Source: Octopus vulgaris | Taxonomy: Eukaryota | Reading direction: 5' to 3' | Length of the DNA: 64,000 bases | Assembly (NCBI GenBank): GCA_951406725.2 | Contig: OX597831.1 | Coordinates: 32,178,001 to 32,242,000 of the forward strand | In this document: positions 1 to 59,730 of the stretch, in pieces | Layout: every line of letters begins with the position of its first letter | How positions within the stretch are numbered: the first letter of the stretch is position 1 | The notes under the pieces: generated by a model | What the model saw: only the letters and a program-made list of their open reading frames with translations | Database searches by the model: none | What the model was told of the DNA's origin: nothing | Position numbers and translations under genes: made by a program

Positions 1-419
1 TCTTGTTTTCATAAGTTCTGAATTAAAAATCTTCCACCAAACTGTAGTCACAATTTATGTTCCTAACACTAGCTTAATGATAACTAAGTTATTTTACTAA
101 ATTCTTTGTTATGTTTAAAGTAATTGAAAGAAACACTGAGCATCTCAACAGAAATATGATAACAAAAGGGTTAAAGTCACCATGATATTTTTAACCCTTT
201 TGATACCAATTTGTCTGAAACTGCCTCTGGCTCTGTAGTACAAATGTCTTGTTTTCAAAAGTTTCGAATTAAAATCTTCCACCAAACCTGAGTCACAATT
301 TATGTTCCTAACACTAGCTTAATGATAACTAAGTTATTTTACTAAATTCTTTGTTATATTTAAAGTAATTGAAAGAAACACTGAGCATCTCAACAGAAAT
401 ACAGTAACGAAAGGGTTAA
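1..419. mobile_element. Two adjacent copies of a piggyBac-like MITE (partial 1-170, full 195-415)
   Basis: TTAA-CCCTTT...AAAGGG-TTAA ends; the two copies are near-identical direct repeats about 20 bp apart. Confidence 0.75.
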
Positions 420-17125: not shown

Positions 17126-19524
17126 CCAGTTTATTTATGTGTGGTTTTGTGTTTGTGTCTGCCCTCCCCCACCTGACAAGCATAACTTAGTGGTTCATCA
17201 AAAAAGATTGATAGAATAAGTAGCAGGCTTTAAAAGCAAATTAAGTACTGCTATTGTTTTGTTCAACTAAAATTCAAGGCGTTGCCCCAGCATGACCGCA
17301 GTCTAATGACTGAAATAGTAAAAGATAAAAGATAGGGAGTTTTAAGTCATTTTAGGGGCTTAGTTCTTAGTGGAATGAACTCCTTAGAGTTGACTTCTTG
17401 ACACGCTCTGGAAGTGTGTCCCCTAATGCCTGAAGACATTAGGGGATATTACATGTTCACCAGAACAATCTCTTGACAAGTCAGTGTGAGATGGTGTGAG
17501 AAAAGAGAGAGAGAGAGCAAAAATCCCATTAATTTCCAAGAATTAATTAGGCAAGTGAACGAATATGAATGGCACCAGTTTCTCGAGTGTTCCGTCACGA
17601 CTACAACAGTTTCCTCTGGAAAATAGGCAGATCTATTAATAAGTCTGTGATAAACAGCAGAGAAACGTGCAATGCCAAAGAAAACATTCGACACAGTGTG
17701 AAGCCATGAAGTTTTCTCTTGTATTGTTGCCATCATTCACAGAATCCAGACAGAACTTCCTGTTCTGTCTTCAACCTCTCCTCTCACCTCCACTCACCAC
17801 TTCCTCTTAATCAGTTTGGTCGACACTAAAATATTACTTCACCCCCCTCACCCCCTTTAATAAGCCTATGCATGTCACCTTCGTGACATTTATCCATAAT
17901 ATTTATAAACTTCCATTTGTCGATTCTTCTCCATCATTCAAGTCCATATTCCATGTGCTTGTCTCCTCTCTCTCTCCACCACCGTTTATTGATCCTGTAT
18001 TTTGTACCTAAACATGGATTAACTGCAGCTGGACGAGTCAGTCAGCCACCTGCAAACCTGAGATCCAATCATAGCCACAGCATTGACATACCTGAGTAAC
18101 AAGTTATTACCTGTGTGGCACCTTGGGCAAGTGTCTTCTACTATTGCCTTAGGCCGACTAAAGACTTGCAAGTGGATTTGGTTGACAGAAACTGAAAGAA
18201 GCCCATTCATCATCGTTTAACGTCTGTTTTCCGCGCTAGCACAGGTTGGACGGTTCGACCGGGGTCTGGGAAGCCAGGGGCTGCTCCAGGCTCCAGTCTG
18301 ATCTGGCAGAGTTTCTACGGCTGGATGCCCTTCCTAACGCCAACCACTCCACGAGTGTAGTGGGTGCTTTCTACGTGCCCATTATATGTATGTATGTATA
18401 TATATATATATGTATGTATGTATATTTGTGTGTCTGTTTGTCTCCCCATCATTGCTTGACAACCAATGTTGGTGTGTTTACATCCCCCTAACTTAGTGGT
18501 TTGGCAAAAGAGACATATAGAATAAGTACTACGTTTACAAAGAATAAGTCTTGGGGTGAATTTGTTTGACTAGAAGATGATGCTCCAGCATGGCTGAAAC
18601 AAGTAAAAAAGAAGTCAGTATTGTTTCAAGGATTGGTTACCCACTTCCCAACAGTCCCCAGTGAATGGCATGCCTGGCTCTCATAGGGTTACTTGTTTAT
18701 GGCTGAGGAGCTAGAACACTGTGAAATGAAGTGTTATGCTCAAGACCACAATGCCCTACCCAGTCTTAGAATTGAAACCATGGCATTGCAATCGAGAGTG
18801 TAATCCCCAAGCCAGTAGGCCATGGCCCCTTCTTTAAGTTCATCCAGGTAGCCAATTGGCAGGGATGGAGGACAGAATGCTTTTGTAGTATTTGTCCTGA
18901 CCCTCTGTGCACTGAGTTCAAACACAACTAACTTCAACTTTGCTTTCCATCCTTTTGGGGTTTGACAAGCAAGGGTGTTGCAACAGAGGAACTGCGAGAG
19001 GGTTCGGTGCCTTGTGGTGTCTATTGAGGATCTTTGCATTCTAACAGTAACACCTTAATGATGCTGGTGCCAAGTTGTGCAGGGCCCAAGTCGGCAGCCT
19101 TTCTCTCGGGTAAACATCAGTGGCATGGAGAGAGATTTGAGCAACTGCTAGAAATAGCCAAATCTACCACTACTGACATAAAGAAACGAAGGACATACTG
19201 GATATGGTAGACCCAATTATACAGAGACAGGATGGTCATGGCTTATCTTTTACTTGTTTCAGTCATTAGACTGTGGCCATGCTGGGGCACTGCCTTGAAG
19301 AATTTTAGTCAAACAAATCAACCCAGTAGTTATTTTTTTGAAAACCTGGTACTTATTCTATCAGTCTCTTTTGCCGAACCACTAAGTTACAGTGATGCAA
19401 ACATACTAACACCAGTTGTCGAGCAGTGGTGGTGGACAAACACAGACACAAAGATACACACACATAGATCGTCATCATCATAGATACACACACACACATA
19501 CACACACATATATATGCACATAGT

Positions 19525-19799: not shown

Positions 19800-19943
19800 T
19801 ACATACAATGGGCATCTTTCAGTTTCCATCCACCAAATCCAGTTACAAGGCTTTGATTGACCTGAGGCTATAGTAGAAAGCACATGTCCAAGATGCCATG
19901 CAGTGGGACTGAACCTGGAGCCAAGTGGTTGGGAAACAAATTT

Positions 19944-20557
19944 ATTTACATTTGACGGATATTTGTCCTCATCTTGTTTGTTGTTGACACAACATTTCGG
20001 CTGATATACCCTCCAGCCTTCATCAAGTGTCTTGGGGAAAATTTAAACCTGGGTTCTCATTCCTAAGGTATTTTTCAGAATCTTGAGGTTAGTAGCCCAT
20101 GCTCTTAACCACTACGCCATATGCCCGTGGGCAATTATGGAGTGAATTTTAGGGCTTATAAATCTAATATTTTCCTATCCTTCCTTAATACTGGTTCCCA
20201 TATGCTACTCATATCTGCACTCGGTCTGCTTAGAAGGTTGTTGTTTGCTAGGATGTGTACTGCTTCTTAAGGAAGGATAAGAAACTACTAGATTTATGAG
20301 CCCTAAAATTCACTCCATAATTGCCCATGGGCATATAGCACAGTGGTTAAGAGTGCGGGCTTCTAACCCCAAGATTCTGAGTTTGATTCCAAGCAGTGAG
20401 GAGGAGGAGGAGGAGAAGACATCGAAAAATACCTTAGGAATGAGAACCCAGGTTCGAAATTTCCCCAAGACACCTGATGAAGGCTGGAGGGTATATCAGC
20501 CAAAACGTTGTGTTAACAAACAAGATGAGGGCAAATATCCGTCGAATGTAAATAATG
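19944..20557. mobile_element. Penelope-like element remnant in inverted arrangement: GIY-YIG-like ORF tail, tRNA-like cassette, hammerhead motif
   Basis: Minus 20156-20266 translates EAVHILANNNLLSRPSADMSSIWEPVLRKDRKILDL*. Arms 19944-20188 and 20267-20557 are inverted copies. Hammerhead motifs at 19986-20031 (-) and 20469-20514 (+). Confidence 0.7.
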
Positions 20558-21249
20558 TTTATTATATGCTTGAATATTTACAGCTTATCCAGAATAAATG
20601 CATAACTTGTGTGCTATTTGCCAAGGAAATAGGAAATTGTAAAGACATTTCAAAGTGTGGACTAATCATAGAGGGGTCAGGACAAAGGAGGAGATAGGCA
20701 CAAAAAAATGGTAAAATTTTATAAATGATTGATTGATGGAAATAGTTGACACACTTTGCATCACCATCTTCATATTTTGGCAAAGTATTCTTTGGTTTTT
20801 CTCCTCAAAGAGGTCCCAACAACTGTTAAAAACTTAAGGAATTAACAAAATTCGGTAATGCTAAGAATTTGAATCTAACATTTTCAAAATATTTACAGAA
20901 CCATTTGTTTTATTTTTCTGCTTTATTTTACCATTTTTTTGCTCTTTTTGGCCATATGAAGTAGTAAGTAATAATAATAACAATGTGTAGGTCTTATGTA
21001 TATATAAGTAGTGGACATGCGGCCAAGTGGTTAGGGTATTTGGCTTATGATCATAAGGCTGTGAGTTCGATATCCAGTAGTGAACTGTATCTTTATTTCA
21101 CATTGTTCCAATTCATTCAGCAGGTAAAACTGAGTCATACCTGTAATTCAAAGGGGCCAGCCTTCTCACACTGAATCTCTCCAAGAACTGTGTTATGGGG
21201 ATGCATGTTTGTGGAATACTCAGCCACTTGCACATTAAATTCACAAGCA

Positions 21250-32209: not shown

Positions 32210-33196
32210 TATCTAGGATGACATCAACTAAATGTCCTTCCATTTTTTAAGGCAGCAGGGTGATGTTTGAAGGAGATTTGGCTGCAATTTCTAGCATGCC
32301 TCTGACCACATAAAGGCACTCTTGTTAATTTGTTGCTGTTTAACCCGTTTGATGCTGATCCAGCAGATTTATGATTAAAGATACCCAGTGGTATTAGCAT
32401 CCAGTCTTTTTCTCTTTCCAGACATCATGCACCTAGCATTCTTATCGACTTTTATTACGGTTGTGGTTTATCCCCAGGTGTTAATCTGGTTTCCTTCAAA
32501 TTTCATCCTACCTTCTTACAAATGGGCCAATATACATGACTCAGTCCTCAATACATTATACCAGAAAACAAGATGGGATGGTCATGGCTGGACTGCCAGC
32601 TGAACCATGAACCTTTAGTGCCATTATTATCATCCACCTCTACCTCCTCCTCCTCACCACTGCCACTGCTGCCACCACCACCACCACCACCACCAACTTT
32701 ATTATTATTATTATGATCATCAACAGAATGGCTATTTATTCTTCATATTCTACATATGCTCCTGTTCCTTTTTATATCTATCCAAAATGACCAATGATTT
32801 AATCTCCAATCAAAGAATATTTACAAATATGTAAATAAAACAAGGCCAAGTTAAAAGAGAAAAAAAAAAACTATACAATCAACCATTTTCTTTGTTGCTG
32901 TTTTATATTATTTTATTTTTTTTATTATATTTGCTTTCTGTTTCTGGCTGGTGATTCTGTTTGGAAAAAAAAGCCATCAAATGATAAACACATCTCTCCA
33001 CCGAATACGACATCGATCATCATTGCATCATTTTGCTGAGTCAACAGTAGGAAAAAATACAAAACACAAGACACACAATTTCATTTCGATTATGTTTTTC
33101 TTAATAGACATCTGGTTTTGCTTTGATTTTTCAACGTGTTTGTGCATTGTTTTTTTAAGAGCCAGAGATTGAAACACAATATAACAGCAGTAACTA

Positions 33197-33725
33197 GCCA
33201 TCTATCCATCCATCCATCCATCCATTCCTTCTGCCCACTATTCCTGGGAAGTTTGTGAGGGTAGAGTCCATTTCTTCTGCCCACTATTCCTGGGAAGTTT
33301 GTTGGGGTAGAGTCCATTTCTTCTGCCCACTATTCTTGGGAAGTTTGTTGGGGTAGAGTCCATTTCTTCTGCCCACTATTCCTGGGAAGTTTGTTGGGAT
33401 AGAGTCCATTTCTTCTGCCCACTATTCCTGGGAAGTTTGTTGGAGTAGAGTCCATTTCTTCTGCCCACTATTCCTGGGAAGTTTGTTGGGGTAGAGTCCA
33501 TTTCTTCTGCCCACTATTCCTGGGAAGTTTGTTGGGGTAGAGTCCTCAGGCCCCTATCAGAAGCAACCATCTTTGCCCTTTCTGGCTGGATTCCTAAGCA
33601 TGAGCAAACGGGACTAGGGATGTTATCTCACCATCTCACTCTTGGTCCTACCCTTAGGTGTTCTGTCAGTTGTCTCAGTTAAGAATCACTCTGGTGTTCT
33701 TTCCTGCAACATTCCAGCAAGAAGA
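33197..33725 (-). mobile_element. Degraded Rex3/Expander-like RTE 3' end with (GGAT)n tail, hosting the minisatellite
   Basis: Minus remnants RTPKGRT, LGIQPE, MVASDRG followed by a (GGAT)n tail; similar decayed piece at 30590-30790. Confidence 0.5.
33225..33545. repeat. Minisatellite, 7 copies of a 46-bp unit
   Basis: Unit ttcttctgcccactattcctgggaagtttgttggggtagagtccat with few substitutions; no spacers. Confidence 0.95.
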
Positions 33726-36169: not shown

Positions 36170-37100
36170 ATTGAGGAATGGTTAAGGAATGGTAGAATTG
36201 TTAGCACATGCCAGACAAAATGGTTAGTGGCATTTCATTCTTCTTTATGTTCCGATTCCAAATTCCACTGAGGTGGACCTTGCCTTTCATTCTTTTGAGT
36301 ACCAGTGGAACCCAGGGGTCAATGTAATCGACTGGTCAACTTCCTTTGAAACTTCAGGCCTTGTGCCTACAGTAGAAAGGATTTTGGGGTCAACAAAATA
36401 TGTACCAGTTAAGCACTGGGGTTGATATGACCAACTATCTCCACCCACTCCAACGATTTCAAGGACTATTATTATTATTATTATTACTATTATTATATTT
36501 TTAAAATTTTTATTAAGGTGGTGAGCAGGCAGAATCCTTAGCAAATTGCTTAGTAGTATTTTGTCTGTCGCTACGTTCTGAGTTCAAATTCCACCGGGGG
36601 TTGACTTTGCCTTTCATCCTTTCAGGGTCGATAAAATAAGTACCAGTTTTGCACTGGGGTCAATGTAATAGACTTAATCCCTTCCCCCAAATTTGAGGCC
36701 TTGCGCTTCCAGTAGAAAGGATTATTATTATTATTATTATTATTATTACTAAGGTGGCAAGCTGGCAGAATCATTAGCATGCCAGGCAAAATGCTTAGCA
36801 GTATTTCGTTTGCCGTTACATTCTGAGTTCAAATTCCACCAAGGTCGACTTTGCCTTTCATCCTTTCGGGGTCGATTAAATAAGTACCAGTTATGTACTG
36901 GGGTTAATGTAATTGACTTAATCTCCTCCCCCAAGCTGCCCTTGTGGCAAAATTATTATTATTATTATTATTATTATTATCATTACTATTATTAAGGTGG
37001 CGAGCTGGCAGAATTGTTAGCACGCTGGGCAAAATGCTTAGTGCCATTTCATCTGTCTTCACATTCTGAGTTCAAATTCCACAGAGATTGACTTTGTTTT
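36170..37100 (+). mobile_element. Head-to-tail array of four SINE family B copies separated by (ATT)n
   Basis: aaggtggcgagctggcagaatc...gagttcaaattcc...gactttgcctttcatcctttcggggtcgat...taagtaccag repeated; the central block resembles the Nin domain. Confidence 0.8.
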
Positions 37101-37103
37101 TCA

Positions 37104-37426
37104 TATTTAAGAGATGAAGAATTATGTACATTATTTACATTATTTACAATTGACGGATATTTGTCCTCATTAGGAAGGGCATCCAGCTGTAGAAACACTG
37201 CCAGATCAGACTGGAGCCTGGTGCAGCCTCCTGGCTTCCCAGACCTCAGTTGAACCGTCCAACCCATGCCAGCATGGAAAACAGACGTTAAATGATGATG
37301 ATGATCTTGTTTGCTATTAACACAAAGTTTTGGCAGATATACCTTCCAGCTTTCATCAGGAGTCTTGGGGAAATTTCAAAGCTGGGTTCTGATCCCTAAG
37401 TTATTTTTCGATATTATTATTATCAC

Positions 37427-37473
<47 letters not shown>

Positions 37474-37550
37474 TCACTGCCTGGAATCAAACTCGGAATC
37501 TTGGGGTTAGTAGCCTGCGCTCTTAACCACTATGCCATATGCCTGTGCAA
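37104..37550 (-). mobile_element. Copy of the tRNA-like + hammerhead Penelope-like family, interrupted by an RTE 3' end (37170-37304)
   Basis: Homologous to 19944-20130; degenerate hammerhead at 37319-37365; (AAT)n spacer; tRNA-like head at 37470-37545. Confidence 0.65.
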
Positions 37551-46444: not shown

Positions 46445-46660
46445 TATATTTTAGAGATTTTACAATGGACGGAGAGGTGTCCCTGCCTTGTTTACTGTTA
46501 CCACAACGTTTTGACTGATGTACTCTCCAGCCTTCATCAGGTGTTCTCATGGAATTTCGAACCCAACCCTTTATTTGACTAATGGGGTACACTGTTCTCA
46601 TTCCTAAGGTATGTTGCTGACGTGGACATATATCTGTCCATTGTAAATAATGTACAACCA
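46445..46660 (-). mobile_element. Diverged copy of the hammerhead-bearing Penelope-like family
   Basis: Minus 46501-46545: aacac-CTGATGA-a-GGCTG...CAGTC-AAAA-CGTT-GTG; shares ttctcattcctaaggta with the 20050 region. Confidence 0.6.
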
Positions 46661-58639: not shown

Positions 58640-59036
58640 TACATCATCATCACTGTTTAACGTCCATTTTCCATGCTGGCATGGGTTGGACGGTTTGACT
58701 TGGCTCTGGAAAGCCAGGAGGCTGCACCAGGCTCCAGTCTGATCTGGCAGTGTTTCTACAGCTGGATGCCTTTCCTAACGCCAACCACTCCGTGAGTGTA
58801 GTGGGTGCTTTTTACATGCCACTGGCACAGGTATCACAACTACAATTGCCATTTGATTTATATTTTGATGTTGATATATATATATATCTATCATCATCAT
58901 CATCATCATTAGGCATTTGGAAGGGCAACCAGCTGTAGAAACTCTGCCAGATCATATTGGAGTCTAGTTCGCCAGACCTCAGTCAAATCGTCCAACCCAT
59001 GCTAGCATGGAAAGCGGACGTTAAATGATGATGATG

Positions 59037-59077
<41 letters not shown>

Positions 59078-59730
59078 TACACATATCTCATCATCATCAT
59101 CATTTAACGTCTGCTTTCCATGCTGGCATGGGTTGGACAGTTTGACGTGGGACTGGCAAGCCAGGAGGCCACACCAGGCTCCAATCTGATCTGGCACTGT
59201 TTCTACAGTGAGATGCCCTTTCTAACACCAACCACTCTGATAGTGTAGTGGGTGCTTTTTACATGCCACTGGCATGAGAGCTAGTCGGGGCAGGGGCACT
59301 GGCATCAGCCACAACTACAATTTCCATTTGATTGTGATTTGATTTGATTTTGATTTCCTTGACTCAATAGATCTCCTCAAGCATGGCATGTCACCCTAAG
59401 ATTCAAAGGTACTTTTTAAATGGGATGGTTATGCAACACTGGTATAGGCTATGGCTGGGATCTCACTTTACTTGCCAGGTCTTCTCAATCAAAGCATATA
59501 TCCAGATGTCTTGGTCTCTTGTCATTGCCTCAGTGAGGCCCAACGTTCGAAGGTCATGCTTCACCACCTCATCCCATGTCTTCCTGGGTCTCTCTCTTCC
59601 ATGGGTTCCTTCCACTGTTAGGGAGTGACACTTCACACAACTCTCCTCATCCATATGCAGTACATGACCATACCAGCACAGTCGTCTCTTGCACACCACA
59701 TTTGATTCTTATGTTGACCATTTCTCTCGT
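58640..59730. mobile_element. Cluster of RTE 3' ends: minus 58640-58830, plus 58905-59037, minus 59095-59730 with RT C-terminus
   Basis: RRLCWYGHVLHMDEE...RPRKTWDEVVKHDLRTLGL followed by the 3' UTR and (GAT)n tail. Confidence 0.85.

Follow-up and report, generated by a model that had tools for sequence, protein, structure and literature searches.

Penelope-like elements (PLEs) with hammerheads, inverted pseudo-LTRs (pLTRs) and tails are already known (PMC4209133, PMC11167929); the comparisons made here draw on the accessible portions of the papers cited. PAc of Anolis shares with the octopus family described below a single ORF encoding RT plus, at its C-terminus, a GIY-YIG domain without a CX2-5CxxC finger in the linker (PMC11167929, PMC8557442), as well as tandem-derived pLTRs, inverted copies, a hammerhead that cuts inside the ORF start, 3' ends in two zones separated by about 40 nt and, by our reading, an uncut RNA template (PMC11167929). 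For PAc, internal initiation by RT at two sites on uncut RNA has been demonstrated (PMC11167929). Promoters have been mapped in very few PLEs, and coding retrotransposons are held to need Pol II. Penelope of D. virilis has a promoter inside the pLTR, as the octopus family probably does, and both show partial tandem and inverted repeats; the D. virilis promoter is TATA-less and LINE-like (Inr/DPE) and accompanied by a 75-bp intron, whereas the octopus family has A and B boxes and needs no intron (PMC2377424). The Schistosoma repeats Sm-alpha and Sj-alpha resemble the octopus cassette in having a Pol III-type promoter followed by a type I hammerhead; they are non-coding, have no known autonomous parent and release monomers by cleavage (review PMC6765202). 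Metazoan non-LTR retrozymes are likewise derived from PLE pLTRs (PMC7229834; bioRxiv 10.64898/2026.07.22.740005), and one octopus locus, L107, is a tandem hammerhead array of this kind.

The window locus and its parent family

In the 64,000-nt stretch of Octopus vulgaris DNA that was analysed (the window), positions 19942-20558 consist of two arms on opposite strands, which meet at 20267/20268. The two form an inverted pair, each arm being a 5'-truncated 3' end, or pseudo-LTR, of a Penelope/Poseidon-type element. Our main reading, to which we give a probability of about three in four, is that the pair comes from an autonomous PLE in which a tRNA-like head is the likely internal Pol III promoter and whose uncut transcripts are likely copied by its own RT. 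The left arm (minus, 20268 to 19942) is truncated at 20268 and holds the last 36 codons, a partial head, the hammerhead and the tail, and the right arm (plus, 20267 to 20558) holds the last codons, a full head, (GAG)n, the hammerhead and the tail. The features of this and the other family copies in the window are as follows.

20156..20268, minus: last 36 codons and stop of the PLE ORF (GIY-YIG C-terminus), 94% to the family majority sequence
20075..20126, minus: tRNA-like head of the left arm, of which the first 52 nt remain; B box and spacer lost
19986..20031, minus: minimal type I hammerhead of the left arm, with C3>U and a disrupted ACGU palindrome
19942..19985, minus: left-arm tail, ending in the first family 3'-end cluster
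20267..20328, plus: last ORF codons, stop and 29-nt linker of the right arm, which starts 61 nt before the head
20329..20398, plus: tRNA-derived head; A box 20336-20346 and B box 20379-20390, both substituted; cloverleaf decayed
20398..20419, plus: microsatellite spacer, (GAG)n in the right arm, (AAT)n/(AAC)n in the family
20440..20442, plus: where the family ORF has its first in-frame ATG, as tandem pLTR-ORF copies show; the hammerhead cut follows 69 nt later
20469..20514, plus: minimal type I hammerhead of the right arm, with its cut predicted after 20509 and G12>A at 20502
20515..20558, plus: right-arm tail, with which the ORF of the next unit begins; its end lies in the first family 3'-end cluster
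37103..37547, minus: second family copy, starting at the head (about -2); hammerhead G12>A
46459..46654, both strands: third, older and decayed fragment pair; hammerhead and tail on minus, tail on plus

All the parts that the initial annotation had read from the letters of the window were found in place, with a few corrections of detail. The 36-codon minus-strand tail is present and its stop ends at 20156, and the complete plus-arm head with A and B boxes lies at 20329-20398. A tRNA-like block does begin on the minus strand, 30 nt after the stop (G+1 at 20126), but it lacks the B box and the spacer; of the two spacers named, (AAT)n, together with (AAC)n, is familial and (GAG)n is peculiar to the plus-arm copy. 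The composite hammerhead ending in GTGTC did not hold, as stem I of the family ends in GTGTT in 70 of 76 copies.

The right-arm hammerhead has a stem I of 5 bp, an extra A after CUGAUGA, a stem II of 5-6 bp and the ACGU palindrome, and G12>A at 20502 makes it likely inactive; no copy in the window keeps an intact core, G12>A being present in the plus arm and the 37 kb copy and C3>U in the minus arm. In the plus arm the B box reads GTTTGA where 28 of 60 sampled copies have GTTCGA, a change of the CpG type. ARAGORN and Rfam called the head no tRNA and the hammerhead no family member, and folding the head of the window copy and the plus-arm hammerhead as single strands gave results no better than shuffles did. 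Both arms begin inside the ORF, so the window copy was derived from a longer RNA. We concluded that the window locus is a dead copy. Its features are not due to chance, since in the genome (2.8 Gb in 227 contigs) family 20-mers have thousands of exact matches and reversed control patterns have none.

A fixed palindromic (MITE-like) element was rejected as a candidate: the apparently fixed junction was an artefact of the query, and other copies are linear, with inversion points that vary. The copy at 37103-37547 is split at 37171-37303 by an unrelated, very abundant repeat of about 135 nt with a (CAT)n end, which lies in the tail of the copy and recurs in the window at 58642-58778, 18207-18337, 59090-59225 and elsewhere. 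Other repeats in the window are three adjoining copies of a further SINE-like repeat (36552-36700, 36750-36920 and 36995-37100) with (ATT)n runs between them, and a tandem array of 46-nt units at 33175-33591, 95-96% alike in the middle.

The parent element was recognised from longer copies. The left-arm peptide (EAVHIL...KILDL) also closes an open frame of 569 aa at locus L052, which matches RVT_1 with an E value of 2.7e-06, just under the Pfam cut-off, and contains a GIY-YIG motif. Homologues of the ORF number 2914 at E<=1e-20, the closest (P0001-P0025) at 55-69%; a Pfam search with the 35-aa tail alone gave no match, and a PDB sequence search gave no solved relative. The suggested likeness of the peptide to a PLE GIY-YIG C-terminus was thus borne out, both by the 5' extension that had been proposed as a check and by the homologues, so that the adverse outcome foreseen, a peptide without PLE hits, did not occur. 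A majority sequence of 110 fragments, with a median copy divergence of 6.0%, has a single open frame of 826 aa, or 838 aa with a 12-aa piece whose missing 36 nt were recovered separately from 22 copies; the sequence is approximate, and a second scaffold yielded a frameshifted version. The RT-EN linker lacks the CX2-5CxxC finger that separates Neptune/Nematis from Penelope/Poseidon (PMC8557442), which points to the Penelope/Poseidon clade. Judged from its predicted protein, the family is an autonomous Penelope/Poseidon-type element with RT and GIY-YIG in about 838 aa. A distant-protein search for a second PLE family in the octopus genome, wanted as a control, returned 30 loci, all of the family described here.

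Tandem copies run in the order head, (AAT)n, ATG, hammerhead, tail and ORF; the cassette is therefore the pseudo-LTR of the element. Tandem-derived pLTRs, inverted copies, variable 5' truncation and an optional tail were all found, and the PLE identity and architecture of the family are plain from its copies. The hammerhead lies in frame inside the N-terminus of the ORF, and the frame is open through the ribozyme, where it matches homologue P0003 at 54% over 99 aa, a likeness to which RNA structure may contribute. The predicted N-termini of P0003, P0071, P0029 and P0119 read through a hammerhead-like stretch, and an in-frame ribozyme may be common in the homologues' clade. No intron is needed, because the unspliced N-terminal frame is open. 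A 47-nt GT..AG intron after the second ATG in the tail was considered and rejected, since the unspliced frame is open and matches homologues better; its joint was absent among the RNA-read joints listed, outside which 87 further joints stand.

The tRNA-like head

The order of head, spacer and hammerhead had been proposed as a family trait, and two samples support this. At 30 loci picked on the ORF middle, the head directly follows the ORF end in all 17 copies that reach the stop, whereas a block missing from most copies had been named as the outcome that would tell against the proposal; among the remaining 13 loci, one ends inside the last codons and 12 are without a sense-strand ORF end. Among 60 head matches unselected on flanks, the family hammerhead is present in 48 and no other body attached to the head is evident. 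Since the same head belongs to the coding element, the pseudo-LTR unit is the autonomous element's own end repeat and not a separate SINE; nor do the units make up a separate non-autonomous family that borrows the 3' tail of a partner. Calibrated totals for the genome are about 9,000 heads and 20,000 hammerheads. These samples also bear on the idea that a SINE or tRNA pseudogene was inserted once into a dead PLE fragment at the window locus. The head and microsatellite do resemble the head and tail of a SINE, but a one-off insertion is refuted by the head in every stop-reaching copy and by the lack of any other evident body behind it, and we give it next to no chance.

A pair of A and B boxes was found in 37 of 60 family copies and in none of 27 control RT-GIY-YIG loci, some of which have short flanks; the search was run with a positive control. 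Of 73 nt of the family head, 48 are shared with tRNA-Arg(TCG) of the genome and 46 with tRNA-Ala(TGC), at the same z, in a comparison that covered 27 distinct tRNAs of six isotypes only; both are candidates for the tRNA of origin. A tRNA-related head with A and B boxes, as in a tRNA-derived SINE, is thus present, and ARAGORN and Rfam call no tRNA in it. No target-site duplication was evident by eye in nine inspected copies. Elsewhere in the window, at 21015-21200, there is a different tRNA-like head with A- and B-box-like motifs, which probably belongs to another SINE family.

Copy ends and the hammerhead

The 5' ends were read on contig C1, at the first 60 loci that match the initial 20 nt of the head exactly, with flanks unselected. 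The interval -7..+2 of the head contains the starts of 47 copies. The other 13 begin upstream, at -46 or beyond, three of them as duplicates of a single insertion, and no start lies at -8..-45; 24 of 30 head-selected loci agree with a start at the head. Exact 20-mer counts in the genome are 741 at -121, 896 at -27, 4260 at +2, 5148 at +30, 8740 at +162 and 11919 at +206, and the copy loss is 4.8-5.4% per nt across the head versus 0.2-1.4% elsewhere, calibrated or not. In a sample of 60 anchored on the tail, which overlaps the head-match sample, 15 copies start at the head by script (one of these has about 25 upstream bases on inspection). The head interior accounts for 11 starts, the spacer for 19, the middle or hammerhead for 13 and the cut for one, and only one of the 60 carries the ORF end. 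Several insertions occur two or three times with the same flanks (L246-L248, on C1 at about 7.93, 8.95 and 9.05 Mb; L009/L019; L265/L269) and are segmental or assembly duplicates.

The count of SINE-like copies beginning at the head, which had been suggested as a check, therefore shows them to be the majority of head-bearing copies, and this favours a Pol III promoter. The pile-up fits a Pol III start, and its simplest reading would be an RNA 5' end near -6. The distance from there to the A box, 13 nt, is the one expected of a Pol III start. As a source of these ends, RNase P cleavage at +1 is disfavoured, because most of them fall at -7..-1 and the acceptor stem is decayed.

The same pile-up might arise if the head were a passenger, an old capture of a tRNA or SINE, with Pol II making the RNA from an upstream start and RT halting or folding back at a palindrome. 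A small palindrome does span the head start, with an imperfect stem extending to about -17; a fold-back joint at it was found in 15 of the 47 head-start copies, so structure contributes to the pile-up but can account for no more than these 15, and 36 of the 47 have an inverted copy upstream. The LINE-like internal promoter of D. virilis Penelope (PMC2377424) is a further point for such a view. However, 32 of the 47 are without a fold-back joint and 11 without any inverted copy, 15 begin at -1..+2, which is too short to self-prime, and there is no end at -8..-45 although the stem reaches into this interval. A hairpin is moreover expected to stall RT at its 3' foot, which also argues against a passenger. 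The A and B boxes have also been kept while the cloverleaf decayed. We consider a passenger head improbable.

Another possibility is that the hammerhead cuts the Pol III transcript and that a short linear or circular RNA, as in a retrozyme, is the mobilised unit. The majority sequence contains an intact minimal type I hammerhead, with the extra nucleotide between 9 and 10.1, the G10.1-C11.1 pair and the palindromic 15.2-16.2 of that motif (PMC4209133), which the window copies do not retain; seven of 76 copies are fully intact, and the sole common non-CpG core variant, at position 7 (T in 48 of 76, A in 22 of 76), is at a tolerated position. The copy loss across the cut, 0.7-1.4% per nt, is slightly above the neighbouring 0.4%, and L107 consists of a head-start copy followed by seven tandem spacer-hammerhead-tail units of 188-197 nt. 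The 3' ends tell against it. Of 90 loci, 76 were aligned to a hammerhead-tail reference and the 14 unaligned were left out; 18 copies end at +49..54 from the cut, 12 at +58..68, a zone that is a 9-nt repeat of the +49..54 site, and 31 at +88..100. None of the 76 ends at the predicted cut, copies extending 16-110 nt past it, and the sole tail-anchored copy that starts there looks like an internal deletion of a head-start copy. Genomic ends thus avoid the cleavage site and do not bound a unit by it; a short self-processed RNA is not the usual template, contrary to the original proposal that what is mobilised is an RNA that processes itself at GUU, or a circle. The end clusters match instead the two RT initiation sites of PAc, in which uncut RNA is the dominant substrate (PMC11167929). 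We therefore regard a retrozyme-like unit, as first proposed, as very unlikely.

Some further observations concern the ribozyme and the tail. When two hammerhead cores were cofolded, the dimer was not the minimum-energy fold. The T/A split at position 7 marks two or more source lineages. The family tail (equivalent to 20525-20558 and beyond) is closed by a stem of 9 bp, the two 3'-end zones lying in its loop and just past it. L107 (G000:C30:17291121-17294191, minus, from about 1500 oriented), with tail-to-(AAT)n joints and two kinds of junction, is the only one of 30 head-selected loci with tandem hammerhead units, the window locus being an inverted pair; it is a retrozyme-like side product that could release circles. 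Many inversion and tandem junctions lie in the (AAT)n spacer, and several copies adjoin (TTA)n runs. As PAc cuts ATT, the (AAT)n spacer may by analogy be a homing target.

The unit runs head, (AAT)n, ATG, hammerhead, tail, RT, GIY-YIG, stop and again head, so that every 3' end carries a head. Under the preferred reading, that of an internal Pol III promoter and uncut templates, we infer that Pol III uses the head: it would start about 6 nt before it, and the T-run-free sequence would allow passage through the hammerhead and tail. By analogy with PAc, RT would then prime internally, in two zones that lie about 50-65 and 90-100 nt beyond the cut, and copy back to the RNA 5' end, giving SINE-like copies of roughly 300 nt that could themselves serve as templates; priming on both strands, or template switching, would give inverted pairs. 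The hammerhead would not define the mobile unit. As it cuts inside the ORF, it would be likely to limit or re-route translation. In tandem copies the same promoter might also make the 2.7-kb coding RNA, for which we see about even odds.

Extent of Pol III transcription and relation to known systems

On the majority sense strand there are 30 runs of A>=4 and not a single run of T>=4. Synonymous shuffles expect 2.9 such T runs (P 0.024-0.028), and two Markov nulls give P values of 0.06 and 0.16; runs of G>=4 are absent as well. The 27 control ORFs, taken from 80 metagenome loci as those with an open frame of at least 400 aa, contain 4-42 runs of T>=4, and a Poisson model gives P values of 0.016 with the lowest control rate and 2e-4 with the mean rate of nine controls of similar T content. 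The comparison sets a family majority sequence against single control copies, and single family copies have 0.4 runs of T>=4 per kb. The absence of T runs speaks, modestly, for Pol III being able to read the entire unit.

The autonomous PLE may have replaced its Pol II promoter with a tRNA gene that it captured, so that the whole unit of about 2.7 kb, in which Pol III stop signals and introns are absent, would be made by Pol III and the element would be at once its own LINE and its own SINE. We hold this tentatively, at somewhat less than even odds, and look no more favourably on the conservative branch of the best explanation, which shares the steps through SINE-like copying and in which Pol III makes the short SINE-like RNAs only, the coding RNA coming from another, Pol II promoter or from read-through. 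At 30 loci picked on the ORF start, two copies begin at the head and four upstream of it, so that a full-length head-initiated RNA is weakly supported; four of the six head-reaching pLTR-ORF copies thus speak for the conservative branch, as do the modest P values for the T runs, 0.02-0.16, and the advantage of a capped RNA in translation. On the other side stand the lack of any T>=4 run in 2.7 kb when all 27 controls have them, and a frame that needs no intron, unlike that of D. virilis Penelope. An upper limit of about 1.3 kb for such elements has been ascribed to the processivity of Pol III, which on this argument rules out autonomous ones (PMC10886601). An uncapped Pol III RNA must somehow be translated; self-cleavage is reported to permit cap-independent translation in some cases (PMC13725137), and this is a possible route for the element.

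Expression was looked at in three RNA-seq runs, about 6% of each being read. Coverage of the element is equal on both strands and its depth follows the genomic copy number; the RNA 5' ends at the head and 3' ends at GUU that had been suggested as a check did not appear, no pile-up of RNA starts or ends being seen on the element in these portions of the runs. This pattern fits passive read-through and weighs neither for nor against Pol III RNA.

An autonomous PLE with a tRNA head was not found in the literature searched or in the accessible portion of the octopus repeat paper (PMC13282606); Repbase, Dfam, subscription papers and the TE library of PMC13282606 may hold the family. A look-up of terms found no word tRNA in the PAc paper (PMC11167929), and a search of the accessible text of bioRxiv 10.64898/2026.07.22.740005 found neither tRNA nor Pol III. 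What sets the octopus family apart from PAc is that its pLTR contains a tRNA-derived head with A and B boxes, that 5' ends pile up sharply there and that T runs are absent. Unlike that of Sm-alpha, its cassette serves a coding element as end repeat and its copies are not cut at the ribozyme, and in contrast to the non-LTR retrozymes most of its copies are solo or inverted and start at the tRNA head. If coding RNA is also a Pol III product, the translation of uncapped RNA and the purpose of PLE hammerheads become testable questions. R2 RNA, for its part, is not regarded as a normal Pol II mRNA. R2 and L1Tc are likewise coding retrotransposons with a 5' self-cleaving ribozyme, but theirs are HDV-like ribozymes upstream of the ORF, with different endonucleases and no tRNA head (PMC6765202). 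The TRIMp3 elements (Helenus, Ajax and Cassandra) also have a small-RNA-derived Pol III promoter in the terminal repeat; they are non-autonomous LTR elements, whose autonomous partners, their author argues, must use Pol II, whereas the octopus promoter candidate sits in the autonomous element itself (PMC10886601). A tRNA-derived promoter in the end repeat of an autonomous PLE would provide a direct route to tens of thousands of SINE-like hammerhead copies, and, if the whole unit is indeed read by Pol III, arrays like L107 would show repeats of the Sm-alpha type and retrozymes arising from Penelope ends. The tRNA-headed family would in this way link PLEs, Sm-alpha and the retrozymes.
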